In this document: positions 27,530-47,608 of the stretch, one piece after another | Position numbering within the stretch: the stretch's first letter is position 1 | Layout: the number at the start of each line of letters is the position of its first letter | DNA from: an uncultured Acidobacteriota bacterium | GTDB lineage: Bacteria > Acidobacteriota > Blastocatellia > RBC074 | Reading direction: 5' to 3' | Assembly: GCA_963796275.1 (NCBI GenBank) | Contig: CAWCKY010000006.1 | Coordinates: 1,696,001 to 1,760,000, forward strand | Length of the DNA stretch: 64,000 nt | Program-made: the position numbers and the translations under genes | Notes under the pieces: model-generated | Database searches by the model: none | Seen by the model: the letters and a program-made list of their open reading frames with translations, nothing else | Told to the model about the DNA's origin: nothing

Positions 27530-29299
27530 CTATCTCTTCAATACATCTATTCCAAAGATGACCGGCTGATAGTCGGAATACTTCTCGGGCAGTTGCACGG
27601 CAAGAGCCGGCTGTTTGTCATCCTGAGTCGCGATGATATTGGGAGGCAGTGTCGATACATCCCGCCTGAAAACATCAAGATTCTTCAGCTCGAGTTCGGT
27701 AAGGGAACGTCCCGACACGGCCGCGAGAAAATCAAGCGTTTTAACCTGTATTGGTGAGAAGATGATGGTGAAGGGAGTTTTATCCGAGTCGCGAGCAATC
27801 TGAAACCATTGATCGCCATACGGAACCTGTAAGTATTCACCCGCTTCGACTCTATTGGTAACGACTCCCGCAACCGGCAAAAGCTGATCAGTTTCCTTGC
27901 TCTGCAAATCCTCCTTACCGGTGCCAACAACATAGAGGTAGCCGTTTTGTTTGGGTCTGAAATGAAATCTGAACCTGCTCCCATCCGCGAGCGGCTCGCG
28001 CCCCGTATCGCGTTTCATTTCACCTGCATTCGAACTGATCTCCAGGTAGTAACGCAGCGACTCGACGCCTGGTATCGGAGCTGACGAAAGATTTGTTCCG
28101 CCAACTACATTGACTTGAGCGCCTTGAGCGTCACGGGGGAAATACTTGCGCGCGAATGCCCAGCTGGAGCTACCGCCCTGAAAGAATAATAACCAGCCTC
28201 CTATGATGATCAGGCAGACCGCGATAGCGACCCCGGAGAAGCTAACCTGCGAGCGCAAACGATGCCGCGACACGGGTTTGCCGCGCCGTACATCAAATTT
28301 CTTAATCGCTCTGAAATCCTTTCCACCAGATGATTTCGCATTGGCCGCCTTACGCTTGTTCTCTGCCAGCCTGATGACGACGTGGTCTGCATTACTGTTC
28401 CTCACCGGAGTATCGGTGATTGCCGGAGCGCGATGAATACTGGCAGGTGCAACAATGCTGCGGCCGGCCCGGCGCAGCGCCTTCCTCATCGAAGCGGCAG
28501 AAACATAACGCTGTTCCGGTTGTAACGCCATAGCCATCTCGATCACTGAAGCGACTGCGGGGGGAACCTCCGGATTCAAAACGCTGATCGACAGCAAGGG
28601 ATCAGGGTCCCCCATCACGATTGCCGAAATGCGTGTGGCGGCATCCTGAGCCATCTCACCGGTCAATAGGTGATAGAGCGTGGTTCCGACACTGTAGAGG
28701 TCGCTGCGCACATCCGTCCCGGTGCCGCGAATCTGCTCCAGCGGCGAATAGTTCGGAGTATATCCCCGGATGCTGTAGCTGCGCTCGGTTTGCCGGCTCG
28801 AAGTACCCTTTGCCAACCCGAAGTCGAGCAGGATTACCTCTCCCCGAGGGGTCAACTTGAGGTTTTGCGGCTTGATGTCGCGATGAATAATCGGTGGGTT
28901 TTGTGTATGCAAATAATCGAGCGCATCGAGCAATTGATCGGCCCAACGCAATACCGCCAAGACCGGAAACCCGCTCTGATTGTGCGTTCGGCGATCCGCG
29001 AGCAGTTGCTCCATATTATTGCCCGGGATGTACTGCATGACCAGATATTGGCTCTCGCCTTCGGAGAAGTAGTCCATCACAACCGGTAAAGCCGAATGCC
29101 GCAGGCGATTGAGCAACCGGGCCTCGAGCGCGAATGCTTCGCGCAGCCGATGATCACTGTAAAATGTCTCTTTTATGGCAACGGTATTGCCGAACTTACG
29201 GTCGGTGGCTCTATAAACCGCACCCATACCACCATGACCGAGTAAATGCATAACGAAATAACGATCTAGTAAAAGCGTATTCGTTGTGATCATCACCAC
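27530..29299 (-). CDS. Membrane-anchored Hanks-type Ser/Thr kinase with extracytoplasmic DUF4384-like domain
   Basis: LGHGGMGAVY, VAIK, HRDIKPQN, DFG and DLYSVG. TM segment VAIAVCLIIIGGWLLFF. C-terminal GSRFRFHFRP...GYLYVV. Confidence 0.9.
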   Translation of the reverse strand: MVMITTNTLLLDRYFVMHLLGHGGMGAVYRATDRKFGNTVAIKETFYSDHRLREAFALEARLLNRLRHSALPVVMDYFSEGESQYLVMQYIPGNNMEQLLADRRTHNQSGFPVLAVLRWADQLLDALDYLHTQNPPIIHRDIKPQNLKLTPRGEVILLDFGLAKGTSSRQTERSYSIRGYTPNYSPLEQIRGTGTDVRSDLYSVGTTLYHLLTGEMAQDAATRISAIVMGDPDPLLSISVLNPEVPPAVASVIEMAMALQPEQRYVSAASMRKALRRAGRSIVAPASIHRAPAITDTPVRNSNADHVVIRLAENKRKAANAKSSGGKDFRAIKKFDVRRGKPVSRHRLRSQVSFSGVAIAVCLIIIGGWLLFFQGGSSSWAFARKYFPRDAQGAQVNVVGGTNLSSAPIPGVESLRYYLEISSNAGEMKRDTGREPLADGSRFRFHFRPKQNGYLYVVGTGKEDLQSKETDQLLPVAGVVTNRVEAGEYLQVPYGDQWFQIARDSDKTPFTIIFSPIQVKTLDFLAAVSGRSLTELELKNLDVFRRDVSTLPPNIIATQDDKQPALAVQLPEKYSDYQPVIFGIDVLKR

Positions 29300-29356
29300 T
29301 CCGTTTCACCTGTTATCTGGTTCTTGCAAATTCACAGGTATTGAATATCCAAGTTT

Positions 29357-30665
29357 TCACCACATCTGTGCCCGTATTTGTTTCAACAATCGATCGGCAA
29401 TTGCTGAATCCGGATTGGCCTTTTGCAACGCGCGGAATTCTTGTTCGGCTTCATCGAGCAACCCGCCTTTTGCATATAAAAGTCCCAGCGTCAGGTGCGA
29501 TGAAGCATAGGCGCGGCGTGCTCGCGCCAGCTCTTTGGCATTTACCTCATCCAATACGCGGAATTTAGCTTGTGGCGCGGGCGGTTGCGGTGAGATCGAT
29601 TCCTGGCCATCTTTGATCGCTTTCACCTGCCAGGCATAGATTCCGCCGCGTTTCAGGGATTGCGGTATCCGCCATTGGTGTTCAGTGACTTGCGGGCTGG
29701 TTATTACCAGGTCGAATTCTTCATTGTATATCTCGACTACATATGCCGTCGCTCCCGCGAGCTGCGACCAACGGAAAGTCGGGCGATCGGAGAAGGTCGC
29801 CAATTTGATCGGCTCGATCACTGAAAAGTTATCGGTCGACTCATAACTACCACCCCTCGGTATGCTCCCCTGCTCGATCAATCCCTCCAGCAGCGGCGAC
29901 CTTCCGAGCTCTTGATCTGTGAGCGCGCTTTTAATCATTTGCCGATAAGCAACAGGCAGATGATCAACGCCCGACAACTTGCCTGCTTCATCTAACGTTA
30001 CATCACCATAACCGTCATTGAGCCGGGCAATAATTGTCACTGCTGTTCCTTTCTGGTCCGATCCGTGTGAGTCAGGCACAAGGACCTTTGGCAAGGAAGA
30101 AGACGTCACAGTGGAATTCTTCTCATTCATCTCTTTCATCGTGAAGGCTTGCCACGCCAGCCAGCCGATGGCGGCCATCAAGAGCGCCGCCATCGATGTG
30201 CCGAGGACGAGAGGTTTCGGCCAGATTGATGTCAGGGTCGCGATCAGGCGATGCCAACCTTTTTCAGTCTTCGCGTGTCTTGGGGAGAGCCGATCTGGGA
30301 CTTCGTATTGGACCGAATCTTTGAATGCGCCCAGATCCCTCGATTACCAGCTCACAATGCCGGCAATAGCTCAAATGATCTTTGACCGCCTGCAACTCAT
30401 CGCCGATCATAGTCGCGTCGACCCACCCGGCTATCTGCTCAAATGTCAGATGCGTTTGTCCTGAGAGTGAGGAGGAGAGAGTTGTTTCGCCGAATATCTC
30501 CGCCCTGAGCGCGAGATACGTAGCATCGCCATCGAGCGCTCGTTTGACTTGCCGGCGACACGCCGCGCAGAAGCCGAGATGGTCGGAGACGAGGAGAAGC
30601 TCTACTGGTGAGAGGGCCCGGCATCCGTAGCCTTCAATTTGGTTTTTCGTGAGATGAGCAGACAA
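29357..30665 (-). CDS. Anti-sigma-like transmembrane protein with two ZAS (zf-HC2) motifs; +1 frameshift at ~30338; paralog of 46319-47608
   Basis: HLGFCAAC and HLSYCRHC. Removing one G from the run at 30337-30339 joins DLGAFKD...WPKPLVLGTSMAALL to ORF 29357-30193, which aligns with the 46319 paralog. Confidence 0.8.
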
Positions 30666-30803
30666 TTGAGCTTAAAACCTCGATTCAAGTGAGAAGTGAT
30701 GCCACTTTAATGATCATTTATTTGTATAAGTTGATGGACGGGACATAGCTTACAAATATTGAATTCCGTGAGACGAAGTTGCGGAATTTGCGCTCTATTA
30801 CTG

Positions 30804-31058
30804 TTACTGTTCGCTCGAAAATCTTAAGGCTTTCGAAGCGATTAACCTCCAAACCACAGACCCAATAACATTGCAAACTACCACTCCTCCTAATAACAAG
30901 GTTATCCAAACCAAAAATATCATCCCGAGGTCCGGTGAACCGAAATAATTATTCAAGAATGGACTGGCGAGAATTATGAAAATGATACCGATAAGAATTT
31001 CACCTGGCATTAGTATAAGCATTTTTCTTACCTTTCTTTGATCTTCTTCATCATTCAA
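30804..31058 (-). CDS. Small low-GC two-TM hypothetical membrane protein, possibly a fragment
   Basis: 84 aa, two hydrophobic helices, AT-rich relative to flanks. Confidence 0.4.
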   Translation of the reverse strand: MNDEEDQRKVRKMLILMPGEILIGIIFIILASPFLNNYFGSPDLGMIFLVWITLLLGGVVVCNVIGSVVWRLIASKALRFSSEQ

Positions 31059-31409
31059 TACTATTTACGTCTTAGCGGCTTTGCGTGAGCTAATAATCCA
31101 GGCATTTTTCGCTAAGACGCTCGTTCAACCATCAACTCTCATATAAAGAAGTTGCCGAACTTTCCGCCATATTACTGATCGCTCGAAAATTTTATGATGG
31201 GCTCCAGATCAATATCGCTTTTGGGCATAAACAAAAGGCGCAAAAGAGGAAAGAACCCCTCTGCGCCTTTGAACCAACAATAATGTGGCAGATATCTAAC
31301 CGCGAAGAATCTCTAGAGCAGGGAAGAGGTAGCAATAGGGGGCTCCCCGTTGCTCGTGCTCCTGGTGGCTTATATCGATCTTTATTGTTTTTGATTAAGT
31401 TTGCGTGTT

Positions 31410-34400
31410 CTAGCGCTGGCCATTCAGGCTAGCCCAATCTCCCGACTGAATGAAGGCCGCCCAGTAGAACGGATGCAGCCGGTTTTTGCTCTTAAGCATC
31501 TGCAACTGCACCTGCCTCAGCCCTTCACTGCGCCCCTCGCCTCGCTGCAGCGCCCGGTAATATTCGATCATCAATTCCTTCGCGCCCTGGTCGCTCACCG
31601 GCCAGAGGCTTATCACCTGGCTCTCCGAACCGGCCAGAACCAGAGCGCGGCGCAGCCCCTGGACGCCTTCACCATTCTTGGGATCTCCCAGACCGGTATC
31701 GCAGGCCGAGAGCACCACCAGTTTGGTCCCATATAGATCCAAGCCGGCCACCTCGAGCGCGGTCAATACACCGTCATCGTCACCGTTCTTGCCCCGATTG
31801 GCTCCCGACAGTGCCAGGCCTGAACGCAGCAATGGTTCCTCGACGTGCGCCGCCAACTTGCTCGACCGCGACTCGGAGATGGGTAGGATGTCATCGGTAG
31901 ATGTCCGACCCGTCTCAGCGGAAAGGGCTTGATCTGCTAGGAAGAATCCGTGAGTCGCGATGTGAAGGATGCTCGGCGCACTGGCTCGTTTGAGCGCTGC
32001 TTCGGTGGCTTCCCGTTGGAGAAGCAGCGATGCCTCCGGGAGGACGGTTTTGATGGCCAGGGCTTCACCTCTCGTTCCAGGCAGCGGCTGGAAAACAATC
32101 TGCGCCAGACCTCTTCTCCTCGATTGGCTCGCCCGTGGGCCTCCCGAGTTCCGAGCTCCTCTGGCGGGTGCAGCCGCTACGGTGCCGAATACGGGATCGG
32201 CTATGACCAACGGAACGTTCTGGTTCGAAGGCGGTGTTCCCTGCAATCGCATGAGATCGCGGCCGCTGGTCAGATAGCTGATGGAATAGCGTTCGATCAG
32301 ATACTGGTTATTTTCGTTCACCAGCGCGGCGAAGGGGATGAGATTGAGCAAACCGTCAGGCGCAATCAGCAGGCGGTCGATCTCGTCTCGCCCCCGTGGC
32401 AACAGCGAACGCACCGGCTGCATGATTTTTTCGTCCACATCGCGTGCCAGTCGTTTGGCGTCCACGCGGTTACCGCGCAGTGCCTGGCGCCAGGCGCCTA
32501 CTACCCGATCGATCGGAGCGGCTTCGCCGAGGTCAACCCAGCGCGGTTGGCCTTGCGGCGCGAGCAGATAGGCGAGGTAGCGCGGCGGCTGTCTATTCCC
32601 GGTCTGCGGCTCTCGTGGAGTGTAGACGACAAACTCGATGAGGGCGCTTGCGGCGGGAAGCGCGGACTGAACGTCGTCGAGCGTGATCGGTTGCGTTTGC
32701 GCGCAAAAATTGGCGCTGCGGGCGCTGAGTTTAACCTCCAAATTCTCCACCTCTACTTCGAGAGGTTCGCGCAGAGCCCGATATCTCTCGGGATTAGCTT
32801 CATCCGGCTCTTTGAATTTGAGCGCTGCCAGCTGCGAGCGGGCCGCGATGAGCTTATCGAAGAGCTCACGATCCTGTTGTGTTGCGTGACGGCGGAAGGT
32901 GGCGATCGTATCGGTCATCGCGTCGAGCCCTCGCCCTTTACGCCGCAACAAGGTGGTGAAGGCGAGCTTGAGCGCCTGCGGATCATTGGGTGCAGCGAGG
33001 CTGTGAAGCCAGAGCGTGAAGTCCGTTCGTTTCGCGAAGAGAGAGATATAAGCGAGTTTCTGGCGTTCTGATCCGAGGGATAGGTTGAGCGCGAGGTTGC
33101 GTTCGTCAACGGCGTTGGCCCGCGATAGATACATAACAGCCTGGGGGATATCATTTTTCAATGCGTAAAGCGCGGCAAGGCCGTTGAGTGCAACCGCGAC
33201 ATCGGGATGATCCGGCCCCTGCGATTTCTCCCAGATGGCCAGCGCGCGCAGGTACAGCGGTTCCGATTTTTCGTATTCGCCCCTTCTGCGGTAGAGGTCG
33301 GCGAGATTGTTGAGAGAATCAGCGACAGCAGGGTGTCCCGGCCCCAGAGATTTCTCTCTCATGGTCAGCGCGCGTCTTTGGAGAGGCTCAGCCTGTGCGT
33401 AATCGCCTGTATCGCTATAAATGCTGGCAAGATTGGCAAGATACCGGGCGGTTTCAGGATGTTCCATCCCCAGCGCTTTCTCCTGGATTGCCAGTGCGCG
33501 TCGAAGATGGCGCTCTGCCTTTGTGAATTCGCCTATTTCGATGTAAAGGACACCAATGTTGTTGAGAGAACGGCCGACATCAGTGTGTTCCGGCCCCAGT
33601 GCTTTTTCCTGAATTGTCAGCGCCCGTTGATATAACGATTCAGCCTGTACGTAGTCGCCTCTTCGTTTGTAAAGGATCGCGAGATTGTTATAAATGCCGG
33701 CTGTCGTAGAGTGGTCCGGCCCGAGTATTTTCTCCCAGATGTTCAGAGAGCGACGGAAGAACATCTCAGCCTTTGCATAGTCGCCCGTACTGCTATAGAG
33801 ATTGGCCAGATTGTTGAGAGATATGGAGACATCGGAGTGTTCCGGTCCAAGCGTCTTCTCGCGGGTGCGCAGCGCGCGCTGATAGATCGGTTCGGCTCGT
33901 GCGTAATCGCCCGTCTCGTAGTAAAGGTCGGCTATGTTGGTAAGGGAAGTCCCAAGCGAATGGTGTTCCGGTCCCAGCGCTTTCTCCTGTATGGCGACCG
34001 CGCGTAAAAGGAGAGGCTCAGCTTTACCGTATTCACCCCTTATTTTATAGATGACCGCGATGTTAGTGAGAGACCTGGCTACAACTGGATGTTCGGGCCC
34101 GAACGCCTTCTCACGGATGATCAGCGCGCGTTGATATAATTGTTCTGCCCTCGTTTGCTCGTCTCGATTAATATAGATATTGGCGAGATTGCCGAGGGAG
34201 GTTGCGACATCCGGATGCTCCGGCCCCAGCACTTTCTCCCGAATGGCAAGCGAGCGCACATAGAGCGGCTCGGCCTTCGTATCGTCGCCTCGGTCTCGAT
34301 AGAGGTTGGCAAGATTGTTGAGAGAAGTGGCGATATCGGTGTGTTCCGGTCCCAGCGCTTTCTCCTGTATGTTCAGCGCACGTTGAAACAAAGGCTCGGC

Positions 34401-35315
34401 CTTCGCGTAGTCGCCCATTTCGAGGTAGAAGTTGGCAAGATTGATGAAGAAATTGGCAACATCGGTGTGCTCCGGCCCCAGCGCTTTCTCCCTGATCGCC
34501 AGCGCTCTTAGATAAATGGGCTCAGCCTTCGCGTATTCGCCTCTCTCCTTATAGATGATTGCGAGGTTGTTGAGAGTGTTTGCGACATCAGGATGTTCCG
34601 GCCCAAGCTCCTTCTCCCTGATGATCAGTGCGCGCTGACCGAGCTGCTCGCCCTTGGTGTAATCGCCGCTTATCGAATAGAGGATGGCGAGATTGTTGAG
34701 ATCGGCAGCGACGTCGGGGTGATTCGCCCCAAGCACCTGTTCGTGAATCTTCAGCATGCGTTCAACCAAATTTCGCGCTTCACCATACTTTCCTGCACGT
34801 CCCAGTTTTTGGGACTCTGAATACATCTTTCGCGCCTCATACAAAGCATTGTCTCTCTCTGTTGCGGCGCGCAACTCCACGATTCGTATTTCGTACTGTC
34901 CAGCCGTCGCATTCTTATACTTCACCAGAATATCGATGCCATAGGTTCCCGCCGCTCCCGCCACCCAGGACACGCTCTCTTCCCCTCCCGCCCTGAGATC
35001 GGAGTCGAACTCTATGTACTGCCTGCCATCAGGCTCGAGCAGCCTCACCGCAACATCGATCCCTACTTGCTTGACGACTGCCTTAACAAATTGACCGGCG
35101 CTCAGTTCTATTTGATAACTATGTTGTTGCCCACCCGCCAGCACGCTCTTGATCGGCCGATCAGGTTCGATAACATCTCTTCCGGTTCGCGCAGCACCCG
35201 ATTCCTGAGGTGATTGCCGGATCGGTTCGAGCGAAAAAGCCGCAGTCACGGGCCTTTCTACTATCAGACCGAAGAATATGAGACTAACAATGATTCGAAA
35301 TACGATTAATTCCAC
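31410..35315 (-). CDS. Exported PPC-TPR-CHAT protease (copy A, ~13 TPR units)
   Basis: Hydrophobic N-terminus, PPC-like beta domain, 42-aa GPEH repeats, catalytic ILHIATHG and VLSACDTG, C-terminal HPFYWAAF. Confidence 0.92.
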   Translation of the reverse strand: MELIVFRIIVSLIFFGLIVERPVTAAFSLEPIRQSPQESGAARTGRDVIEPDRPIKSVLAGGQQHSYQIELSAGQFVKAVVKQVGIDVAVRLLEPDGRQYIEFDSDLRAGGEESVSWVAGAAGTYGIDILVKYKNATAGQYEIRIVELRAATERDNALYEARKMYSESQKLGRAGKYGEARNLVERMLKIHEQVLGANHPDVAADLNNLAILYSISGDYTKGEQLGQRALIIREKELGPEHPDVANTLNNLAIIYKERGEYAKAEPIYLRALAIREKALGPEHTDVANFFINLANFYLEMGDYAKAEPLFQRALNIQEKALGPEHTDIATSLNNLANLYRDRGDDTKAEPLYVRSLAIREKVLGPEHPDVATSLGNLANIYINRDEQTRAEQLYQRALIIREKAFGPEHPVVARSLTNIAVIYKIRGEYGKAEPLLLRAVAIQEKALGPEHHSLGTSLTNIADLYYETGDYARAEPIYQRALRTREKTLGPEHSDVSISLNNLANLYSSTGDYAKAEMFFRRSLNIWEKILGPDHSTTAGIYNNLAILYKRRGDYVQAESLYQRALTIQEKALGPEHTDVGRSLNNIGVLYIEIGEFTKAERHLRRALAIQEKALGMEHPETARYLANLASIYSDTGDYAQAEPLQRRALTMREKSLGPGHPAVADSLNNLADLYRRRGEYEKSEPLYLRALAIWEKSQGPDHPDVAVALNGLAALYALKNDIPQAVMYLSRANAVDERNLALNLSLGSERQKLAYISLFAKRTDFTLWLHSLAAPNDPQALKLAFTTLLRRKGRGLDAMTDTIATFRRHATQQDRELFDKLIAARSQLAALKFKEPDEANPERYRALREPLEVEVENLEVKLSARSANFCAQTQPITLDDVQSALPAASALIEFVVYTPREPQTGNRQPPRYLAYLLAPQGQPRWVDLGEAAPIDRVVGAWRQALRGNRVDAKRLARDVDEKIMQPVRSLLPRGRDEIDRLLIAPDGLLNLIPFAALVNENNQYLIERYSISYLTSGRDLMRLQGTPPSNQNVPLVIADPVFGTVAAAPARGARNSGGPRASQSRRRGLAQIVFQPLPGTRGEALAIKTVLPEASLLLQREATEAALKRASAPSILHIATHGFFLADQALSAETGRTSTDDILPISESRSSKLAAHVEEPLLRSGLALSGANRGKNGDDDGVLTALEVAGLDLYGTKLVVLSACDTGLGDPKNGEGVQGLRRALVLAGSESQVISLWPVSDQGAKELMIEYYRALQRGEGRSEGLRQVQLQMLKSKNRLHPFYWAAFIQSGDWASLNGQR

Positions 35316-35342
35316 ACTATTGCCTTTTCATTTTTCCAAATA

Positions 35343-38300: not shown

Positions 38301-39140
38301 CGTTTCTGCTTTTGTGTAGTCGCCTTTTCGAAAGTAAAGTATCGCGAAACTATTGAGGGAATCGGCAACATTCGGATGTTCCGGCCCGAAAGCCTTCTCC
38401 CTGATAGCCAAAGCCCGCAAAAATGTCGATTCAGCCTTACTATATTCGCCCCTATCGCTGTAGTGGATGCCGAGATTGTTGAGAATTTCGCCGACCTCGG
38501 GATGTTCAGGACCCAGGACCTTTTCACGCAGCGCCAGTACGCGTTCACCCAATGGATGCGCTTCGTCATATTTTCCTGCGCGATTCAGCTTGTAGAACTC
38601 TAAATTCAGCTTTCGAGCTTCATGCAAAGTGCGGTCATTCTCATTAGCGACGCGCAGTTCAACTACTCGAATCTCGTATAATCCCGCAGCTCCATTCTTA
38701 TATTTCGCACTTACCTTAATCCGATAGGTGCCCGCCTCCGTCGCCACAAAAGTCATGGTCTCTGGACCATGCGTCCTGAATTCCGAGTCGATCTCGATGA
38801 TTTGCTTCTCATCGGGTCCAAATAATTGCACCATCGCATCGATCCCATCCTGCTCGACGAACACTTTCACGAACTGATCGGCGTTCAGCCTGATCCGGTA
38901 GGAATGCTCCTGCCCACCTGCCAGATCGCGCTTAATAGGCCGCCCCGGTTCGATCACCTCCTCGTCCGTGCCAACCGCTTCAGCTGATTGCGGTATCGTA
39001 CCGTGCGGGAAAACCTGCGGCGAGGTGGTAACAAGCAATAAACCGGAGAATAGAAAGCTGAACATCGCATTGGCTCCGGGGCCAACGACGACCCGCCGTT
39101 TCCGACCTAGGGCTGAGCGATCTGTACTCTGATGCGTCAT
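35343..39140 (-). CDS. Exported PPC-TPR-CHAT protease (copy B, ~11 TPR units)
   Basis: Same architecture as copy A, with the His and Cys catalytic motifs intact. Confidence 0.92.
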   Translation of the reverse strand: MTHQSTDRSALGRKRRVVVGPGANAMFSFLFSGLLLVTTSPQVFPHGTIPQSAEAVGTDEEVIEPGRPIKRDLAGGQEHSYRIRLNADQFVKVFVEQDGIDAMVQLFGPDEKQIIEIDSEFRTHGPETMTFVATEAGTYRIKVSAKYKNGAAGLYEIRVVELRVANENDRTLHEARKLNLEFYKLNRAGKYDEAHPLGERVLALREKVLGPEHPEVGEILNNLGIHYSDRGEYSKAESTFLRALAIREKAFGPEHPNVADSLNSFAILYFRKGDYTKAETLQQRSISIWEKALGPEHPNVATSLNNIGTIHWVNGDYAKAEPIFKRALTIREKALGPEHLTVAAILYNLATLYSKGGEYALAEPFYQRSLIITEKALGPVHPYVALCLNNLANNYCDKGNYAKAEPLLQRALAIREKLLGPEHSDVAVSLNNLASFYREKGDYTKAEPLSQRALKIWEKALGLEHHYVATALSNLAALNYIKGDYANAEPLYQRALAITEKVYGLEHPDVADALTNLAILHKARDDYAKAEPLYERALSIREKKLGLEHPDVADSLTNLATLYKARGDYARAEQLHGRALTIREKMLGAEHPDVANSLFNLASLYKTTGKFAKAETGYRRALTIWEKTLGPEHPYIGTALYDLARLSVENGDTAEGIKILSRGNSVDERNFVLNLDAGSERQKLIYLSLFSERTDFTLWVQSQAAPNDPHALNLAFTTLLRRKARGLETMTDTIATFRRHATPDDTELFDKLTDARSQLAALKIKKPDGANHETILTQLKPLEEQIELLEGKLSVRSAGFRAQAQPVTLAAVQAAIPAGGALVEFVVYHPQDPRTGERQPARYLAYLLTQQGQPRWVELGEAAPIDQAVDAWRHSLRGNRVDVKRLARVVDEKIMRPVRSSLHPGQPGQPGKQSGQAKIGNIRHLLIAPDGPLNLIPFAAMVDERNRYLIERFSISYLTSGRDLLRLQNLPESQDPPLVVADPIFGKETVTTQTIAKRTVNSRIDLRAVKPSQDDQTEQKDHTRQIFFRPLPGTKAEALAIKNILPDASLLLQQQATEAAIKRTRAPRILHIATHGFFLGDQQTPTATPTATPTATPRAETSGDLDPLLISNLRLSKWAENFGEPLLRSGLALSGANRGKNGDDDGVLTALEVAGLDLYGTKLVVLSACDTGLGEVKNGEGVQGLRRALVLAGSESQVISLWPVSDQGAKELMIDYYRALQRGEGRSEGLRQVQLRMLKNKDRLHPFYWAAFIQSGEWANLGGRR

Positions 39141-39416: not shown

Positions 39417-41267
39417 CTAACGCCGGCCATCCAGATTCGCCCACTCCCCCGACTGGATGAACGCTGCCCAGTAGAACGGATGTCGCCGCTGCTTGCTCCG
39501 CAGCATTCGCAACTGCACCTGCCTGAGCCCCTCGCTGCGTCCCTCTCCTCGCTGCAGCGCCCGGTAATAATCGATCATCAATTCTTTCGCACCTTCGTCG
39601 GTCACCGGCCAGAGGCTCATCACCTGGCTCTCGGATCCGGCCAGGACCAGCGCGCGCCTCAACCCCTGCACACCCTCGCCATTCTTGATGTCTCCCACTC
39701 CCGTATCGCAGGCCGAAAGAACCACCAGCCTGGTGCCCAACAAATCCAAACCGGCCACCTCCAGCGCGGTCAACATGCCATCATCGTTTCCCTTCATGTT
39801 GCGATTGGCTCCCGACAACGCCAGGCCAGATCGCAGCAGGGGTTCTTCGATGTGCGCGGCCCGTCTGCTCAGCCGCAAATCGGACCCGAGCGTGAAATTA
39901 TCATCAGAAATGTCGTTCGTCTCTGCCGGTTGGGCTGGTTGATCGTTGAAGAAGAACCCGTGAGTGGCGATGTGTAAGATGCGCGGCGCCCGTGCTCGTT
40001 TGAGCACAGCTTCGGTAGCCTCCTGTTGCAGGAAAACCGCAGCTTCCGGGATGACTGCCTTAATCGCCAGGGCTTCGGCCTTCGTCCCCGGCAGCGGCAG
40101 GAAAACGGGCTGCTCCAATTGCCCGGGCTGCCCCATTTGCCCCGGTTGTCCTGTCCGATGGATTGCGGGCGATATTCCAGACCTCTGAGCAGCTCGCTCA
40201 GAATCGGATGTCGCCGGACCGAAGAGAGGATCGGCCACAACCAGCGGAGCGTTCTGGCTCGGCGATGAGTCTTGCAGCCGCATCAGATCGCGCCCGCTCG
40301 TCAGGTAGCTGATAGTGTAGCGCTCGATCAGGTATTGATTCTGTTCGTCTACCAGCGCGGCAAGATGTTCCGGCCCGATAGCTTTCTCTTTAATGGCTAG
40401 CGCCCGGATAGACAGCGGTTCGGCGCTGGCGTAATCGCCTTTATTGAAGGAGATGTTCGCCAATAAGTTGAGAGAGGCAGCGACATCGGTATGTTCCGGC
40501 CCCAGCGTTTTCTCCTGGATGGCCAGGGCGCGACTCGACAGCGGCTCTATCTTAGGGTAGTCGCCCTTGTAATAATAGAAGACGGCCAGATCATGCAAAG
40601 CTGAGGCGAGATCTCGATCGAGCGGACCTGAGATTCTGTTTCGCGTCTCGATCACGCGCTCAAATAACGGGAGCGCTTCAGCATACTTGCCTGCGTCACG
40701 CAATCGGCGAGCCGCTTCGTTCAGCCTATGGGCATCCTGCAGGGCTCGATCGGTTTCTGTTGCGCTGCGCAGCTCATCGATCCGAATCTCATAATTCCCC
40801 GCGGGCGCCCAATTCTGTTCGGGTCGTATGATTAATCGGTATGTGCCCGTCGCTTCTGCCACCAGCGAGACCGGCTCATGCCCGCTGAGACTGCGTTCTG
40901 AGTCGAACTCCAATATCAGTTTCCCGTTCGGCCCGAACACCTGCACCGCCACATCGACACCATCGTTGTCGATGACTGTCTTCAGAAATTGATCAGCGGC
41001 TAAATTGATCTGGTAGCTATGCTGCTGCCCCCCCGCCAGTTGGCGATTAATCGGCCGTCCCGGTTCGATGACATCATTATCTGTCTGGACGCTGCTCGCC
41101 TCTCGTGTCGATTGGCGGATCGAACTGAGTGTATATGCCTCGGGCAGGGATGTAACCAATAACAGACTGGAGGGCAGAAGTATGATCATTGCCCTTGTTA
41201 TACTGCGATAAACGACCCGCCCTCTCCGGCCGTTTAAAGCCGAGTGACGTACACTCTGATAAAACAT
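39417..41267 (-). CDS. PPC-TPR-CHAT protease with a large in-frame internal deletion (copy C, ~3 TPR units)
   Basis: The junction ...IGPEH|LAALVDEQ... fuses a TPR directly to mid-CHAT. Catalytic His and Cys are retained. Confidence 0.85.
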   Translation of the reverse strand: MFYQSVRHSALNGRRGRVVYRSITRAMIILLPSSLLLVTSLPEAYTLSSIRQSTREASSVQTDNDVIEPGRPINRQLAGGQQHSYQINLAADQFLKTVIDNDGVDVAVQVFGPNGKLILEFDSERSLSGHEPVSLVAEATGTYRLIIRPEQNWAPAGNYEIRIDELRSATETDRALQDAHRLNEAARRLRDAGKYAEALPLFERVIETRNRISGPLDRDLASALHDLAVFYYYKGDYPKIEPLSSRALAIQEKTLGPEHTDVAASLNLLANISFNKGDYASAEPLSIRALAIKEKAIGPEHLAALVDEQNQYLIERYTISYLTSGRDLMRLQDSSPSQNAPLVVADPLFGPATSDSERAAQRSGISPAIHRTGQPGQMGQPGQLEQPVFLPLPGTKAEALAIKAVIPEAAVFLQQEATEAVLKRARAPRILHIATHGFFFNDQPAQPAETNDISDDNFTLGSDLRLSRRAAHIEEPLLRSGLALSGANRNMKGNDDGMLTALEVAGLDLLGTRLVVLSACDTGVGDIKNGEGVQGLRRALVLAGSESQVMSLWPVTDEGAKELMIDYYRALQRGEGRSEGLRQVQLRMLRSKQRRHPFYWAAFIQSGEWANLDGRR

Positions 41268-41380: not shown

Positions 41381-44300
41381 CTAGCGCCGGCCGTCCAGAT
41401 TCGCCCACTCCCCCGACTGGATGAACGCTGCCCAGTAGAAGGGATGCCGCCACTGCTTGCTTCGCAGCATTCGCAACTGCACCTGCCTGAGCCCCTCGCT
41501 GCGTCCCTCTCCTCGCTGCAGCGCCCGGTAATAATCGATCATCAATTCTTTCGCACCTTCGTCGGTCACCGGCCAGAGGCTCATCACCTGGCTCTCGGAT
41601 CCGGCCAGGACCAGCGCGCGCCTCAACCCCTGCACACCCTCGCCATTCTTGATGTCTCCCACTCCCGTGTCGCAGGCCGAAAGAACCACCAGCCTGGTGC
41701 CCAACAAATCCAAACCGGCCACCTCCAGCGCGGTCAACACGCCATCGTTGTCCCCCTTCATGTTGCGATTGGCTCCCGACAATGCCAGGCCAGATCGCAG
41801 CAGGGGTTCTTCGATGTGCGCGGTCCACTTACTAAGCCGTAGAGCGGGGATTATGGGCGGGTTTTCGTCAGAAATGTCGTTCGTCTCTGTTGGTTGGGCT
41901 GGTTGATCGCTGAAGAAGAACCCGTGTGTAGCTATGTGTAAGATGCGCGGCGCCCGTGCTCGTTTGAGCACAGCTTCGGTAGCCTCCTGTTGCAGGAAAA
42001 CCGCAGCTTCCGGGATGACTGCCTTGATCGCCAGGGCTTCGGCCTTCGTCCCCGGCAGCGGCCGGAAAACGATCCCTCCCTTGCCCCGATTGCCCCGTTT
42101 GCCCCGATTGTCCCAATTGCCCAGTCTGCCCCGGGTCGATTTGCCTTCCCGCTCGGCGGACGGATGGCGAGGTGCCAGACCTCTGAGCTCCTCGTTCTGC
42201 TGCGAATGTCGCACCGAAGAGAGGATCGGCCACAACCAGCGGAACGCCCTGTTCGGGCGGTGAGTCTTGCAGCCGCAGCAGATCGCGCCCGCTCGTCAGG
42301 TAGCTGATGGTGTAGCGTTCGATCAGGTATTGATTCTGTTCGTCTACCAGCGCGGCGAAAGGAACGAGGTTGAGCGAGCCGTCCGGCGCAATCAACAGGC
42401 GGCCGATCTCGCCCAACTCGGATTGTAACGATGACCTGATCGGCCGCATGATCATTTCGTCGACTTCGCGGGCCAGACGCTTGACGTCGATCCGATTCCC
42501 GCGCAAAGCCTGGCGCCAGCCGTCCACCGCTTTATCGATCGGAGCCGCTTCGCCGAGGTCTACCCAGCGGGGCTGACCACTCGGTGCGAGCAGGTAAGCG
42601 ATGTAGCGTGCCGGTTCGCCCTTCAGGGTCGGCAGCTTTTGCGGAGTATAGACGACAAACTCGATGAGGGCGCTGTTGGCGGGCAGCGCTGCCCTGACGG
42701 CGGCGATAGTGACCGGTTGGGTTTGTGCCCGGAACCCGGCGCTTCTCGCGCTGAGCTCACCTTCGAGCTTATCGACCACTTCTTCGAGCGGCTTCAGCCG
42801 TTCCGGGTTTATTTCGGGCTTCGCATCGTCCGTCTCCTTGAGTTTGAGCGCGGCCAACTGCGAGCGGGAATTGGTGAGCCGATCGAAAAGCTCTTTGTCT
42901 TCCGATGTAGCGTGGCGCCGGAAAGTTGCGATGGTGTCTGTCATCGCATCGAGCCCGCGCGCTTTCCGGCGGAGCATAGTAGTGAAAGCGAGATCGAGCG
43001 CCTGCGGATCGTTGGGTGCCGCCTTATTGTGGAGCGTTAGCGTGAAATCGGTCCGTTTAGAGAAGCCGGCCAGATAAGCGAGTTTCTGGCGTTCGGAACC
43101 GGTGGCGAGATTGAGCGCGAAGTTTCGTTCGTCGATGCTGGTGGCGCGCGCTTGAAATGCGACGGCTCGCCCGATATCACCTTTTGCCGCGTATAGCACG
43201 GCAAGGTTACTGAGATAATCGGCAATGTCCGGATGGTCCGGGCCTAACGATTTCTCGCCGATGGATAGTGCGCTGTGAGCGAGGGGTTCGGCAATTGCAA
43301 AGTCACCTTTCTTGGTGAAGAGTGCCGCGAGACTGCTGAGAGTATTAGCGACCTCGGGATGTTCCGGTCCGTGAGCCCTCACCCAGATGTTCAGCGTCCG
43401 CTCGTATAAGAGCTCGGCCTTCGGGTAATCGTCCTTGGTCACGTTGAGCTCGGCCAGATTGAAGAGAACGCGAGCGACATCCGGATGTTCCGGGCCCAGC
43501 GCGCGCTCACGAATGGAGAGGGCGCGCCCATAGTAAAGTTCCGCCTTCGCGTAGTCTCCCTTTCTCGTGCTGTAAATTGAAGCCAGATTATTGAGGATGC
43601 GGGCAACATCCGGGTGTTCCTGTCCCATCGCTTTCTCCATGATAGACAAGGAGCGCTCGTAAAGTGGTTCCGCCTTGGCGGAGTCGCCCTTAGCCCGGTA
43701 GAGGTTTGCGATGTTGGTGAGAAATTTTGCGACTACCGGATGATCTGACCCCAGCGCTTTCTCGTAGATGGCCAGTGCGCGGCTGTACAGCGGTTCAGCC
43801 TTTGCATACTCGCCTTTGGCCCGGTGGAGATTGGCGAGATTGTTGAGCGCGGAAGCGACATCAGTGTGTTCCTGGCCCAGCGCTTTCTCCCCAATGGTCA
43901 ACGCGCGCCTATAGTAGGACTCGGCTTTCGCATAATCACCTGTATCACTATATAGGTTGGCGAGATTATTGAAAGAAGCGGCGACATCAGGATGTTCAGC
44001 TCCCTGTGCCTTCTCCCTGATGGCCAGCGCCCGCTCATAGTATGACTCCGCCTTCGCGTAATCGCCCGTGGTCTTGTAAAGGCCCGCGAGGTTATTGAGT
44101 GTAGCAGCGATAATCGGATTTTCCGGCTTCAGCGATTTCTCCATGCTTGTCAGCGCACGCTGAAACAAGGGCTCCGCTTTCGCATATTCGCCAATTTCAC
44201 TGTAGAGGGAAGCGAGATTAAAGAGCGCACTCGCGAAACCGAGATGCTCCGGTCCCAGTACCTTTTCACAAATTGCCACCACTCGTTCGACCAATGGAAC

Positions 44301-44897
44301 CGCTTCATAATAGTGGCCGGCGCGAAACAGTTTGGCGTATTCGGTGTTTATCTTGCGCGCCTCATGCAACGCGCGGTCATTTTCCGTCGCGAGTCGCTGC
44401 TCCACTACCTGAATCTCGTATTGCCCGACCGCCGCATTCTTATATTTCGCCGCTACCTCAAGCCGGTAGATGCCCGGCTCTTCCGCCGCCCAGGAAACAT
44501 TCTCCTGCCCCTTAGTGCTTCTATCACCATCGAACTCTATGATCTGCTTGCCATCCGGCTTAATCAGTTTCACCACCGTATCTATCCCATCCTGCTTGAC
44601 GACAACCTTGAGAAACTGATCGCCGTTCAGTCTGATCTGATAGCTATGCTGTTGCCCGCCCGCCAACTCGCTTTTGATCGGCTCTCCCTGCTTGAGCGAG
44701 GGAAAATCCATCTCGGTCTTGCTGCTCCTCGCCTCTTTAGGCGTTTGCAGCATCCGAACGTGCGGCGCAGACTGAGTTGATGGTGTTATTAATAAAGCGG
44801 AAAGCAGTAATGAGATCGGGATTCTGGACAGGGCTCGATTCTCTGCCTGCCGTTTCCGGATTTCTGAACCCGAGTAATTTGCACTCTGACGAGCCAT
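41381..44897 (-). CDS. Exported PPC-TPR-CHAT protease (copy D, ~9 TPR units); +1 frameshift at ~42079
   Basis: ORF 41868-44897 runs to GQSGQ, then ORF 41381-42235 carries IVFRPLPGT...HIATHG...LSACDTG. GGAG RBS upstream. Confidence 0.88.
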
Positions 44898-45233
44898 GGA
44901 GGTCCCTCACATAGTTATAGGTCCGCGTCTCTAAATATGACGGCCGTATGTTGTCATGCTGACAGAGCGCGAATATACGGGGGTGCGTGAGTAGGCAAGA
45001 CTTTCCGCATAGTACAACGGAATTTAGCGCAAATCGAATCGGTTCGGTCCTTCCTATGCCGACTTTCTTCAAAACTTCCCAATTATTTTTGTCTTAGACT
45101 CAGAAAAAATATGCTTGGCGAGGGGATATTCCGATACAACAATTTAACAATCAATATGCCCGGCTTCTATTGAATGATTACAACTCGCTGATTTATCATC
45201 GCAACGCCCTTTCACTAAAATGAAAACTGGAAC

Positions 45234-46289: not shown

Positions 46290-46318
46290 ACGCGGTGAAT
46301 TAAGCGAGGAAACGCTGC

Positions 46319-47608
46319 TTGTCAGATCATCTTACGCAAAATCAGATTGAAAACTATAGCCGCCATTCGCTACCGGCTGCGGATTTGCTCTCCGTCTCCG
46401 ACCACCTCGCCTTCTGCGAGACCTGCCGCCAGCAGGTCCAATGGGCGCTCAATAGTGATGCTATCTATCTCGCGCTCAGATCCGAACTATTCGATCGTAC
46501 GCAACTCTTCTCACCTTCCACAGCTTACGGGCACCTGACATTTGAGCAGATCGTCGGAACAGTTGACGCAACCCTCGCCCACGATGAACTGCAGTCCGTC
46601 ACGGATCACTTGGTCTGCTGCCAACAATGTGTCATGGCAGTCGACGATCTGCGCGTATTTAAAGAGCAGATCGAACCCGAACTCGTCCTCCCGGATCAAC
46701 CTCCCGCTTTGGATTTAAAGAGCCTAACAGCCTGGCCTCGCTGGTTTACGTTGTGGCCCAAATCGCTGGTCTTCGGTTCGGCGCTGGCCGCGCTCTTGCT
46801 GGCTGTCTCCGGCTTGATGTTATGGCAGGCGTTCAAGGTAACAAAAAAGGATGCGCCGAGTACGGCCGTGATGACGCCCTCACCCGCTCCTTCAGCGCCT
46901 GTCCCATCCGGACCGAATCCTGGGGGCGCTACGGCAGTTGCGCTGCTCAACGACGGTGCGGGGCAGGTGAGGTTGGATCAGGCGGGCAAACTATCGGGCG
47001 TCGATCACTTGCCACCCGCTTATCAACAGATTGTAAAAAACGCGCTAACCAAACAGGAATTCGAAAGATCGCCGTTGCTGGCGGGATTGACTCCGAGGGG
47101 TATCACGCCGCGTGGCGGAGGGGATGAGCCGCGCGACAAGTTTTCATTGATCGAGCCGGTCAGGACTTTGGCCCTCTCAGAGCATCCGGATTTTCGCTGG
47201 TCGCGTTTGGTTGGTGCCTCGGTTTATGTGCTCGAGATATACGACGAAGAGTTCGACCTTGTGTCGACCAGTCCACGCATCGCCGGTCAGAGGTGGAGGG
47301 TGCGGCAACCGCTCAAACGTGGTGGCGTCTATTACTGGCAGGTAAAGGCGATCAAAGACGGCAGGGAAGTTGTCTCACCGCAACCGCCATCGCCCCAGGC
47401 GAAATTCCGGATTCTGGATGAGGCGAAGGCGAATGAGTTGGCGCGAGCGCGGCGAGCCTACGGATCCTCACGCCTGTTGCTCGGACTGCTGTATGCAGAG
47501 GCGGGATTGCTGGAAGAAGCCGAAGGACATTTTCGCGCCCTGCAGAAGGCGAATCCCGATTCCGCGATAGCCGCGCAATTGCTGCAGCAAGTACGGTCAC
47601 ATAAGTAA
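46319..47608 (+). CDS. Anti-sigma-like protein: two ZAS motifs, TM helix, Pro-rich linker, extracytoplasmic beta domain and TPR-like helix
   Basis: DHLAFCETC and DHLVCCQQC; TM LVFGSALAALLLAVSGLMLW; FRWS, YYWQVKA and LGLLYAEAGLLEEA. Starts 29 bp after the sigma gene. Confidence 0.82.
   Translation: MSDHLTQNQIENYSRHSLPAADLLSVSDHLAFCETCRQQVQWALNSDAIYLALRSELFDRTQLFSPSTAYGHLTFEQIVGTVDATLAHDELQSVTDHLVCCQQCVMAVDDLRVFKEQIEPELVLPDQPPALDLKSLTAWPRWFTLWPKSLVFGSALAALLLAVSGLMLWQAFKVTKKDAPSTAVMTPSPAPSAPVPSGPNPGGATAVALLNDGAGQVRLDQAGKLSGVDHLPPAYQQIVKNALTKQEFERSPLLAGLTPRGITPRGGGDEPRDKFSLIEPVRTLALSEHPDFRWSRLVGASVYVLEIYDEEFDLVSTSPRIAGQRWRVRQPLKRGGVYYWQVKAIKDGREVVSPQPPSPQAKFRILDEAKANELARARRAYGSSRLLLGLLYAEAGLLEEAEGHFRALQKANPDSAIAAQLLQQVRSHK

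Follow-up and report, generated by a model that had tools for sequence, protein, structure and literature searches.

The window analysed here is a stretch of 64,000 nucleotides on a contig of an uncultured member of the Blastocatellia, a soil acidobacterium. All genes named in the initial annotation are present where it placed them (Table 1). On the minus strand, a hairpin follows CHAT_D and sets the array of CHAT genes apart from the unit formed by the second anti-sigma gene (anti-sigma') and the kinase gene. Located upstream of the sigma gene, the CHAT genes are transcribed away from it, a layout that is also compatible with CHAT as a target of the sigma factor. The divergent intergenic region contains a sigma-70-like promoter match (TTGAAT, 18 nt, TATCAT) at 45170-45199 on the plus strand; the block around it shows partial conservation in two of the aligned relatives. 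No ECF-type motif was found that is common to this region and the regions upstream of the CHAT genes.

Table 1. Features of the CHAT/sigma/anti-sigma locus (positions in the window)
Feature	Position	Strand	Basis and remarks
Kinase, Hanks-type Ser/Thr, transmembrane, 589 aa	27530..29299	-	Pkinase match
anti-sigma' (second anti-sigma paralog)	29357..30665	-	zf-HC2 match; frameshifted; no sigma gene adjoining
Terminator-like hairpin, 15 pairs, T-rich tail	31234..31270	-	consensus scan only
CHAT_D, 1301 aa, intact	31410..35315	-	CHAT and TPR_12 profile matches
CHAT_C, 1265 aa, intact, architecture as CHAT_D	35343..39140	-	CHAT profile match
CHAT_B, 616 aa, internally deleted derivative	39417..41267	-	profile and DNA comparison
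CHAT_A, two frames (41868-44897, 41381-42235)	41381..44897	-	ORF comparison
Divergent intergenic region CHAT_A / sigma, 336 bp	44898..45233	.	promoter scan and alignment
Divergent ECF-type sigma factor, 351 aa	45234..46289	+	structure comparison and relatives
Transmembrane anti-sigma, 429 aa, intact	46319..47608	+	ZAS motifs, model, synteny

CHAT_D consists, in order, of an N-terminal hydrophobic signal, a PPC-like domain, about 13 TPR units, a helical middle domain and a CHAT domain with His1122 and Cys1205 as putative catalytic residues; in profile searches it scored 278.3 bits for CHAT and 624 bits for TPR_12, and CHAT_C scored 274.7 bits for CHAT. CHAT_B has a signal, a PPC-like domain and three TPR units, the third of which is fused directly to position 40 of the CHAT profile, i.e. 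an internal deletion. In CHAT_A the reading frame breaks just past a 9-bp tandem repeat near position 42075 that encodes Gly-Gln-x units. The four genes had been described as intact, which holds for CHAT_C and CHAT_D but not for the frameshifted CHAT_A and the internally deleted CHAT_B. The expected His/Cys motifs do occur in all four, in CHAT_A only in the second frame, and both residues are invariant in 51 of 51 CHAT sequences. The PPC domain is less clear-cut, as its scores of 19.7–25.2 bits stay under the Pfam cut-off of 25.9 (for CHAT_C, 20.9 bits with the whole protein and 25.2 bits with the first 200 residues) and CHAT_A has no match. In all four window proteins the most hydrophobic 15-mer falls within the first 40 residues, and among the complete CHAT ORFs that neighbour related sigma genes 48 of 50 have an N-terminal hydrophobic 15-mer scoring at least 1.5, many ending in Ala-x-Ala. 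Such 15-mer scoring bears out the N-terminal export signals proposed earlier, both in the window copies and in the neighbours of relatives, and suggests a periplasmic location of the TPR-CHAT proteins.

The plus-strand anti-sigma factor is modelled (pLDDT 83.8) as two ZAS three-helix modules, a membrane helix (153-176), an adjoining disordered linker rich in Pro, Ser and Ala (177-205), and an outer part with an FN3-like sandwich (273-368) and TPR-like helices (368-428). The FN3 assignment is supported by structure matches with Z-scores of 8.1–9.3 and by Foldseek. The double ZAS arrangement was confirmed, as none of the 54 sequences compared departs from either HxxxCxxC set (H4/H29/C33/C36 and H72/H97/C101/C104). 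The second paralog is indeed located on the minus strand beside the kinase gene and shares about 55% identity with the plus-strand copy, but an extra base near 30339 breaks its reading frame. Downstream of the break the frame runs open from 30343 and still encodes the membrane helix and the FN3-like motifs; all ZAS ligands are retained (zf-HC2 26.4 bits, cut-off 22.2).

The designation as a long sigma factor is only partly reflected in the protein's own sequence, for which a Pfam search gave no family match and which scores 31.9 bits against TIGR02937, below the cut-off of 42.9. Its identity follows from structure comparison and from its relatives, of which 11 out of 21 match Sigma70_r2. The model (pLDDT 80) shows an ECF-type sigma2 domain at about 9-112 (Z 8.5, rmsd 2.6 Å over 85 residues) and a sigma4 domain at about 245-351 (Z 8.9, rmsd 1.7 Å over 68 residues), separated by a conserved insert of approximately 130 residues (about 113-244).

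The synteny survey covered 80 related loci from Blastocatellia, which are kin rather than independent samples. An anti-sigma gene lies directly downstream of the sigma gene in 79 of these, and a CHAT domain starts at most 4 kb downstream in 48 of the 57 loci with that much DNA. Among 40 well-flanked loci, 33 have a CHAT domain within 7 kb on either side and seven do not; from the approximately 31 CHAT loci in the 9.46-Mb genome of the host, we estimate that chance would place one in such a stretch in roughly 2% of cases. The six sigma paralogs of this genome are accompanied by an anti-sigma gene in five cases, a full CHAT gene in three and a CHAT fragment in one. Deeper in the phylum (20 loci of 15 genomes) the anti-sigma gene is found in 16 loci and a CHAT gene with the catalytic region beside the pair in 10, and across the phylum the CHAT gene may be convergent, co-directional or divergent. 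The sigma factor, ZAS anti-sigma factor and TPR-CHAT protein are thus conserved together far above chance, as had been anticipated. The protease family, however, is not dedicated to the sigma switch, since 24 of the 31 CHAT loci of the genome have no sigma or anti-sigma gene within 6 kb.

Complex prediction was performed with residues 740-1301 of CHAT_D and 177-429 of the anti-sigma factor, using our own alignments. Docking of the CHAT domain on the anti-sigma ectodomain, whose cleavage the initial annotation postulated, was predicted with scores of 0.75, 0.74 and 0.75, compared to 0.00 for the best of three controls; such a score expresses the confidence of the model itself. Of 80 solved complexes 58 came up to this mark, as did 2 of 110 mismatched pairs; with our own alignments in use, these counts apply only approximately. 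At least 86% of the contacts were common to the runs, with partner pLDDT values of at least 79, and the predicted interface includes conserved FN3 residues such as Y308, F312, W340 and Q341.

The closest published system is DdvA/DdvS of Myxococcus xanthus, in which DdvA is described as a ZAS anti-sigma factor fused to a periplasmic TPR-CHAT part, with CHAT proposed as site-1 protease acting ahead of RseP (PMC11506125). The initial annotation knew of no characterised exported multi-receptor form, but an exported TPR-CHAT part tied to a ZAS anti-sigma factor has already been studied structurally in the fused protein DdvA (PMC11506125); related PDB entries are 8rlz, for the N-terminal domain, and 8rot and 8rw5, both under the name 'CHAT domain-containing protein'. 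Among PDB sequences the anti-sigma profile matches this N-terminal domain (8rlz) best, albeit weakly (E 0.0036); in the PDB sequence search the CHAT profile did not reach DdvA at an E-value of 0.01 or better. As far as the DdvA description goes, both systems share a flexible linker next to the membrane besides the ZAS anti-sigma and TPR-CHAT parts. By the same description, the TPR-CHAT protein of the window differs in being encoded apart from the inhibitor, with an export signal of its own and a PPC-like or SnoaL-like N-terminal domain, the anti-sigma factor in having its own FN3-like and TPR-like ectodomain and two ZAS modules where DdvA has one, and the sigma factor in carrying the insert; no CBASS or CRISPR context and no cas genes were found among the ORFs scanned from 21.6 to 54.3 kb.

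Three other systems are more remote. Csx29, the TPR-CHAT protease of type III-E Craspase, is reported to cleave Csx30, which holds an ECF sigma factor (PMC10028731), and Csx29 chains are the best, though weak, PDB sequence matches of the CHAT domain (E 6e-4 to 1e-3). The analogy drawn previously is apt in that both link a TPR-CHAT protein to ECF-type sigma control, but it is more distant than DdvA: Craspase is described as cytoplasmic and RNA-guided, with a soluble substrate, whereas the window encodes proteases with export signals and a membrane-bound ZAS inhibitor, and its scanned neighbourhood has no cas gene. RseA resembles the window anti-sigma factor in its single pass and cytoplasmic sigma-binding domain, both predicted here; it is described as cut first by periplasmic DegS, a PDZ serine protease, and then by the M50 site-2 protease RseP (PMC11506125), whereas the site-1 candidate in the window is a caspase-like CHAT protein with a TPR sensor. 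CHAT, carboxypeptidase and subtilase neighbours have been noted bioinformatically for the ECF54 group, with proteolytic control proposed (PMC8999054, PMC7826278). The conserved CHAT neighbour is a shared trait, but ECF54 is set apart by its description as actinobacterial and devoid of an anti-sigma factor; the present acidobacterial family nearly always has one of the ZAS type.

On balance, we lean towards the view that the locus encodes a split relative of the DdvA/DdvS switch, with protease and inhibitor as separate proteins. Judging from gene order and motifs, the tandem-ZAS anti-sigma factor would hold the ECF-type sigma factor at the membrane, while the TPR-CHAT proteins, carrying N-terminal signals, would be exported to the periplasm. 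There the CHAT domain may dock on the conserved face of the FN3-like ectodomain, as in the controlled complex prediction. A putative ligand would trigger the TPR or PPC-like sensor part, upon which the His/Cys protease might cut the anti-sigma factor outside the membrane as a site-1 protease, probably in the disordered linker. Following the DdvA/RseP and RseA models, an M50-family site-2 protease and cytoplasmic proteases would then free the sigma factor; a search found M50 proteases in the genome, which is weak evidence as they also occur in 14 of 14 control genomes.

In this assembly CHAT_A, CHAT_B and the minus-strand anti-sigma gene are damaged. The minus-strand half made up of these genes might therefore be a decaying product of duplication and recombination, its layout an accident of paralog turnover, an explanation that we consider rather unlikely, though worth serious attention. 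Besides the frameshifts and the deletion, it would account for the 3' ends of CHAT_A and CHAT_B, whose DNA identity of 95–96% points to recent conversion, for the fact that few of the 80 related loci hold more than one CHAT gene (two separate genes in L050 and L075), and for the adjacency of anti-sigma' and kinase, which among 23 kinase loci is seen in this window only. On the other hand, the frameshifts all sit at short homopolymer runs and at 39248 the assembly differs by one base in such a run from an independent contig, so that they may be assembly errors; public contigs did not span these sites. In addition, anti-sigma' has kept its ZAS ligands and FN3 motifs. As relatives rarely carry a tandem array and the one here shows recombination and decay, the maintained 'receptor repertoire' envisaged earlier is not supported at this locus. 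The units of the window that most likely work are the plus-strand sigma/anti-sigma pair and CHAT_C and CHAT_D.

Membrane anti-sigma factors are usually inactivated by regulated proteolysis. This speaks for cleavage of the ectodomain and against mere binding, in which the FN3 ectodomain would serve as a membrane dock, co-receptor or inhibitor for the exported protein, and signalling would occur by conformational change or by freeing the protease toward other periplasmic substrates. The catalytic residues (His383 and Cys466 in fragment numbering) are absent from the named CHAT_D interface residues, suggesting that docking may be at an exosite, which fits regulation by binding as well as cleavage; the many CHAT paralogs lacking a sigma partner also suggest other substrates. 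In the DdvA report, as far as it is drawn on here, direct proof of autoproteolysis is likewise not given (PMC11506125). We nevertheless judge binding without cleavage unlikely, in view of the invariant His/Cys dyad and of the membrane-adjoining linker, which resembles the cut region proposed for DdvA, and CHAT-dependent cleavage of the anti-sigma factor remains the step we infer.

The kinase (Pkinase E 6e-37, 127.9 bits) has a cytoplasmic kinase domain, a membrane helix (354-372) and an outer domain of about 215 aa that scores 20 bits against DUF4384, below the cut-off of 27. Its gene follows anti-sigma' on the same strand after 57 bp, and a PPC-TPR-CHAT gene is found directly upstream of a related kinase in five of the 23 kinase loci (this window, C4 of the same genome and three loci in two relatives). 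Hanks kinases are, moreover, described as activators of ECF sigma factors (PMC8999054). The kinase could hence act in the same circuit, phosphorylating the sigma insert or serving as a second substrate of the exported CHAT proteins, but we regard this as improbable. Of 40 related loci, six have a kinase domain no more than 7 kb from the sigma pair, which is near chance given 33 merged catalytic-domain loci, so the cross-talk suggested in the initial annotation finds little backing in synteny; the closest relatives of the kinase stand alone, and comparison of its ectodomain with those of the anti-sigma factors revealed no similarity. Membership of the kinase in the system is doubtful, and it probably adjoins the CHAT genes without belonging to the sigma circuit.

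As the ECF classification study cautions, synteny does not distinguish regulators from targets (PMC7826278). It is nonetheless very unlikely that the sigma factor has the CHAT genes as its output and switches on exported proteases in an envelope or defence response: the divergent layout around a shared intergenic region and the frequent control of neighbouring genes by ECF sigma factors would suit such a role, but of the 59 related loci with a CHAT gene nearby 53 have it in convergent orientation and hence under its own promoter, a bipartite motif conserved ahead of the sigma gene in 21 of the 80 relatives (nearly always as a single copy per locus) never precedes a CHAT gene in these 21, and the predicted contact with the anti-sigma ectodomain would be unexpected for a mere target. 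If the locus is a split relative of DdvA/DdvS, the separate genes for protease and inhibitor would make protease-triggered release of the sigma factor directly testable.

A sigma factor gene, an anti-sigma factor gene and one or more genes for CHAT-domain proteases with putative export signals form a real, conserved module. The species-level genome collection was searched with a 14-row sigma alignment, and the best 80 loci were kept of 472 confirmed relatives; these are the closest relatives and not independent of one another. An anti-sigma gene follows the sigma gene in 79 of these 80 loci, and a CHAT domain starts within 4 kb downstream in 48 of the 57 loci having that much DNA. Counting both flanks up to 7 kb, CHAT genes were found at 33 of the 40 well-flanked loci, a count unaffected by L048 and L098, two loci with the nearest CHAT roughly 17–23 kb off and an uncertain contig-to-locus mapping. 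Where CHAT is present, the orientation is mostly convergent (53 loci), with five co-directional cases and one upstream. Of five relatives examined whose sigma locus has no CHAT, four have 16–36 CHAT matches per genome and the fifth 2; on such counts, a chance CHAT neighbour within a few kb is estimated for only a few percent of loci. The association also extends to other families of the phylum (20 loci in 15 genomes), where 16 loci have an anti-sigma gene. Adjoining the pair, 10 loci have a CHAT gene that includes the catalytic region, and one has a CHAT fragment. Contig ends cut two of the CHAT-less loci in this deeper set, and all arrangements occur, including the divergent one of the window. 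The genome of the window itself has six sigma paralogs, five with an anti-sigma gene, three with a full CHAT neighbour and one with a CHAT fragment. One unpublished sequence (L018, from genome G004) is present in the alignments, its genome also enters the tallies of close relatives with the sigma family and of kinase relatives, and no claim depends on it alone.

The source assembly comprises 9.46 Mb in 7 contigs, and a relative search placed the closest relatives of the locus among Blastocatellia or Pyrinomonadaceae MAGs of the phylum Acidobacteriota. The four CHAT paralogs share one layout: a hydrophobic N-terminus and PPC-like domain, then 42-residue TPR units, a helical middle domain and the CHAT domain. 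Only CHAT_C and CHAT_D are intact, and the array of four proteases in the initial annotation includes damaged copies; what is special to the window, as opposed to the module, holds only in part.

Features of the locus and its surroundings (positions within the window)
Feature	Position	Strand	Remark
X-Pro dipeptidyl-peptidase (S15)	25395-27372		overlapping ORFs in different frames
Transmembrane Hanks kinase, 589 aa	27530-29299	minus	
Anti-sigma paralog	29357-30665	minus	near 30339, one base more than in its paralog
84-aa ORF	30804-31058	minus	in the gap between the anti-sigma paralog and CHAT_D
Terminator-like hairpin	31234-31270		inside the same gap (745 bp)
CHAT_D	31410-35315	minus	intact
CHAT_C	35343-39140	minus	intact
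CHAT_B	39417-41267	minus	TPR unit 3 fused straight to CHAT profile position 40
CHAT_A	41381-44897	minus	frame change right after a 9-bp tandem repeat coding Gly-Gln-x units
Tandem repeats before the CHAT catalytic half	42081-42133, 40106-40142, 36406-36435, 35844-35891		
Sigma-like gene, 351 aa	45234-46289	plus	divergent from CHAT_A
Anti-sigma, 429 aa	46319-47608	plus	
S24 peptidase ORF and APH(6)-type phosphotransferase ORF	47819-49129		directly after the plus-strand anti-sigma
282-aa ORF and 1123-aa subtilase (S8)	49667-54269		

CHAT_B covers positions 40–288 only of the CHAT profile, and CHAT_A matches positions 2–91 in one frame and the remainder in another. The 3' ends of these two genes are 95–96% identical in DNA, which points to recent recombination between them. 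The second anti-sigma of the initial annotation is indeed present, albeit frameshifted in this assembly; its correct frame is open from near 30339 to the stop, and the membrane helix and ectodomain motifs are kept. A third frameshift of the gene family was found in another anti-sigma paralog of the same genome (contig C1, about 78900). Short homopolymer runs occur at all three frameshifts (30339, about 42075 and C1 about 78900), and the word GAGGGATC is common to the two sites in the window. This shared word and the homopolymer location suggest a systematic assembly error. Two sets of public contigs cover scattered parts of 29300-45300, with one single-base length difference between the window and an independent contig in these parts, at a short run at 39248. 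Since both window frameshift sites lie outside this coverage, assembly error and real decay are both possible.

Tandem repeats of 9, 12 or 18 bp are found in all four CHAT genes in the loop before the catalytic half. They code Gly-Gln-x units in CHAT_A and CHAT_B, the CHAT_A frameshift lying at the end of such a repeat, and one sigma paralog of the same genome (L005, on contig C2) carries an insertion of a similar repeat. The small ORF downstream of CHAT_D encodes two strongly hydrophobic segments and has no family match. The S15 gene, with Peptidase_S15 and PepX_C pieces, is broken or mis-assembled. At the other end, the S24 (LexA/UmuD-like) peptidase and phosphotransferase ORFs occupy the position 3' of the anti-sigma gene that the convergent CHAT gene takes in most relatives. 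Beyond them, the 282-aa ORF matches Sigma70_r2 weakly (20.4 bits, cut-off 24) and the subtilase that follows it contains PA14 domains; these ORFs may be a second pair of a sigma factor and an exported protease.

The sigma-like protein itself matched no Pfam family, even at an E-value of 10, and its TIGR02937 match (31.9 bits), with an alignment spanning the whole protein, is below the cut-off of 42.9. Among 21 family members, 11 matched Sigma70_r2 (best E-value 1.6e-5), the window protein not being one of them, and only three reached Sigma70_r4_2 (best E-value 0.038). In a structural model built on 21 relatives (pLDDT 80), residues 9–111 superimpose on the sigma2 domains of SigW, SigR and SigC (Z 8.1–8.5, rmsd 2.5–2.6 Å, 78–85 residues), and residues 245–351 on region 4 of E. 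coli sigmaE (Z 8.9, rmsd 1.7 Å, 68 residues). Sigma factors make up most rows of an exhaustive structure search with this model, including the whole top; Foldseek returned nothing at an E-value of 0.001 or better, yet nearly all the rows it listed are sigma factors. Instead of the short-linker ECF layout, a conserved insert of about 130 residues (113–244) separates sigma2 from sigma4. This insert and the tandem-ZAS partner are the two unusual features of the family, and literature searches gave no description of either.

The family is large, with 2949 cluster representatives at E-values up to 0.001 and 1685 at up to 1e-30 among 1.84 billion, and the nearest clusters in the ESM Atlas are named 'hypothetical protein' and are mostly from Acidobacteriota. 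Members were found in 30 of 41 close relatives and, when the phylum was sampled evenly, in 21 of 301 genomes. No ECF-type promoter motif shared by the sigma and CHAT upstream regions was found in the window. In 21 of 80 related loci (L042–L086 and others), a conserved bipartite motif consisting of GGATTGC, about 16 nt and GTTTAGAT is located 40–230 bp upstream of the sigma gene. Nearly every one of these loci has a single copy, none has a copy in front of a CHAT gene, and the window lacks the motif. We propose this motif as a candidate autoregulated promoter.

The anti-sigma factor is characterized by two sets of putative zinc-site residues, H4/H29/C33/C36 and H72/H97/C101/C104, each including an HxxxCxxC motif and invariant in all 54 aligned anti-sigma sequences. 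The zf-HC2 family (cut-off 22.2) is matched with 26.4 bits by the minus-strand copy, versus only 10.8 bits by the plus-strand copy. The best PDB sequence matches of the anti-sigma profile are ZAS domains, with the N-terminal domain of DdvA, from the DdvA/DdvS switch of Myxococcus xanthus, ranking first, albeit weakly (E-value 0.0036). The model (pLDDT 83.8) consists of two three-helix modules and a membrane helix (153–176), followed outside the membrane by a disordered Pro/Ser/Ala-rich linker (177–205), a small beta/alpha unit, an FN3-like sandwich (273–368) and four TPR-like helices. FN3 domains fill the structure-search lists. A search for fused, longer relatives gave none at an E-value of 1e-5, a negative result that the tool itself flags as weak evidence. 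From the adjacency of the two genes in nearly all loci, the anti-sigma factor is presumed to bind its neighbouring sigma factor.

The CHAT domains of CHAT_D and CHAT_C are clear (278.3 and 274.7 bits, cut-off 24), and every one of the 51 CHAT sequences has the catalytic His and Cys. The putative PPC domain (PF04151, cut-off 25.9 bits) stays below the cut-off in every copy, with 19.7 bits in CHAT_B, 25.2 in CHAT_C, 20.3 in CHAT_D and no match in CHAT_A; one ortholog (L073) reaches 26.5 bits. CHAT_A to CHAT_D each have their most hydrophobic 15-mer among residues 1–40, and 5–6 basic residues come before it in A, B and C. Similarly, a hydrophobic 15-mer with a score of at least 1.5 is present at the N-terminus in 48 of the 50 neighbouring CHAT ORFs that are complete; many resemble classical signal peptides, and 18 of the 50 match a simple pattern of Ala-x-Ala before Gln. 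These N-terminal hydrophobic signals after basic residues suggest that the TPR-CHAT proteins may be periplasmic, and they led us to reject a cytoplasmic role like that of Csx29, the TPR-CHAT protease of the type III-E CRISPR system Craspase. No Cas7-11 or other cas-related family was found among the ORFs scanned at 21.6–54.3 kb, and no CRISPR-like array at 27–48 kb.

The N-terminal sensor end varies among partners: it is PPC-like in the subclade of the window, whereas partners of the convergent type have a SnoaL-like end or TPR units alone. Identity between the copies in the window is 50–59% for the PPC-like and TPR parts and 71–76% for the middle and CHAT parts. Genome-wide, about 31 CHAT-domain loci and 18 matches to the PPC-like N-domain were counted; only seven of the 31 loci have a sigma or anti-sigma gene within 6 kb, and 24 are without. 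This set is a large family of putatively exported caspase-like proteins. With PADLOC, the CHAT proteins matched only a generic TPR model and the kinase only generic kinase models; the sigma and anti-sigma factors matched nothing.

A direct contact between the protease domain and the anti-sigma ectodomain is predicted by modelling of CHAT_D residues 740–1301 (51-row alignment) with anti-sigma residues 177–429 (54-row alignment). The complex scored 0.75, 0.74 and 0.75, against 0.00 for the highest of three controls. In calibration, 58 of 80 solved complexes attain this mark, as do 2 of 110 mismatched pairs; the calibration holds only roughly since our own alignments were used. Runs shared at least 86% of contacts, with a partner pLDDT of at least 79. 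The predicted interface includes conserved FN3 strands on the anti-sigma side (Y308, F312, W340, Q341 and neighbours), and residues 945–955, 1003, 1078, 1239–1242 and 1277–1281 of CHAT_D; the catalytic His and Cys are outside these named contacts. Interface conservation is slightly above average on both sides (0.78 versus 0.64 for CHAT, 0.73 versus 0.68 for the anti-sigma factor). We know of no solved complex of the CHAT/FN3-ectodomain kind. DdvA is without an FN3 domain by its domain description (PMC11506125). On these two grounds, it seems unlikely that the prediction merely reproduces a solved complex. The modelling supports a putative binding of the CHAT domain to the anti-sigma ectodomain.

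The kinase of the window is a clear Pkinase homologue (127.9 bits, cut-off 31.7), for which cross-talk with the sigma circuit had initially been envisaged. This link is weak. Of 40 loci, 6 have a kinase catalytic domain no more than 7 kb from the sigma pair, which is near chance given 33 kinase loci per genome. Among 23 loci with relatives of the outer domain of the kinase, an anti-sigma gene adjoins the kinase only in the window. A PPC-TPR-CHAT gene is directly upstream on the same strand in five (the window, contig C4 of the same genome, and three loci in two relatives), two have a CHAT gene about 3 kb away, and 16 have none. Comparison of the kinase and anti-sigma ectodomains with hhalign aligned the membrane helix alone (probability 8%), and they are unrelated. 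The five CHAT-kinase pairs, set against the near-chance association with the sigma pair, make it more likely that the kinase is tied, loosely, to the CHAT genes rather than to the sigma factor. A PPC-TPR-CHAT gene directly followed by a transmembrane Ser/Thr kinase with a related outer domain, without a sigma or anti-sigma gene, recurs outside the window at four loci in three genomes (G000:C4:56752-62000, in the genome of the window, and L158, L161 and L165).

The literature found on CHAT with anti-sigma and ECF terms consists of the DdvA/DdvS papers and type III-E papers. DdvA is a ZAS anti-sigma factor with a periplasmic TPR-CHAT part, to which an unproven autoproteolytic site-1 role is ascribed (PMC11506125). 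The authors call it the only characterised anti-sigma factor of its kind and name relatives from Myxococcota and from one Comamonas. A term search of the main text of that paper found no mention of separately encoded forms. DdvA combines ZAS, membrane helix and TPR-CHAT in one polypeptide, whereas in the window the anti-sigma factor and the TPR-CHAT proteins are separate genes. We regard the module as a split form of the DdvA/DdvS switch, in which a contact between CHAT and ectodomain is supported computationally. CHAT neighbours have been noted in a review for group ECF54 (PMC8999054); this group is described as actinobacterial and without anti-sigma factor (PMC7826278), and membership of the window sigma factor was rejected on this description. 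The term 'CHAT' is absent from the main text of that ECF reclassification, and no paper on tandem ZAS domains was found by title or abstract in the literature searched.

More speculatively, and on balance improbably when all its elements are taken together, the locus could be one node of a genome-wide periplasmic receptor network, in which some 31 exported TPR-CHAT proteins would act on few anti-sigma factors. Sensor ends of several kinds (PPC-like, SnoaL-like or TPR alone) would be combined with a common CHAT surface for the FN3 'handle', docking on five or six tandem-ZAS anti-sigma factors and perhaps also on transmembrane kinases. A further lock, as yet undescribed, would come from the 130-residue insert of the sigma factor together with the second ZAS module. 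If true, many outside signals would be channelled by proteolysis into few transcription programmes, as a CRISPR-independent equivalent, outside the cytoplasm, of innate sensing of the NLR or caspase type.

Apart from this speculation, the locus offers a natural split form, with separate protease and candidate substrate and a predicted docking surface that can be mutated, so that the firing of an ECF sigma switch by a periplasmic caspase-like protease becomes testable by simple co-expression. Even if the module proves ordinary, a common unknown of soil Acidobacteriota gains an annotation.
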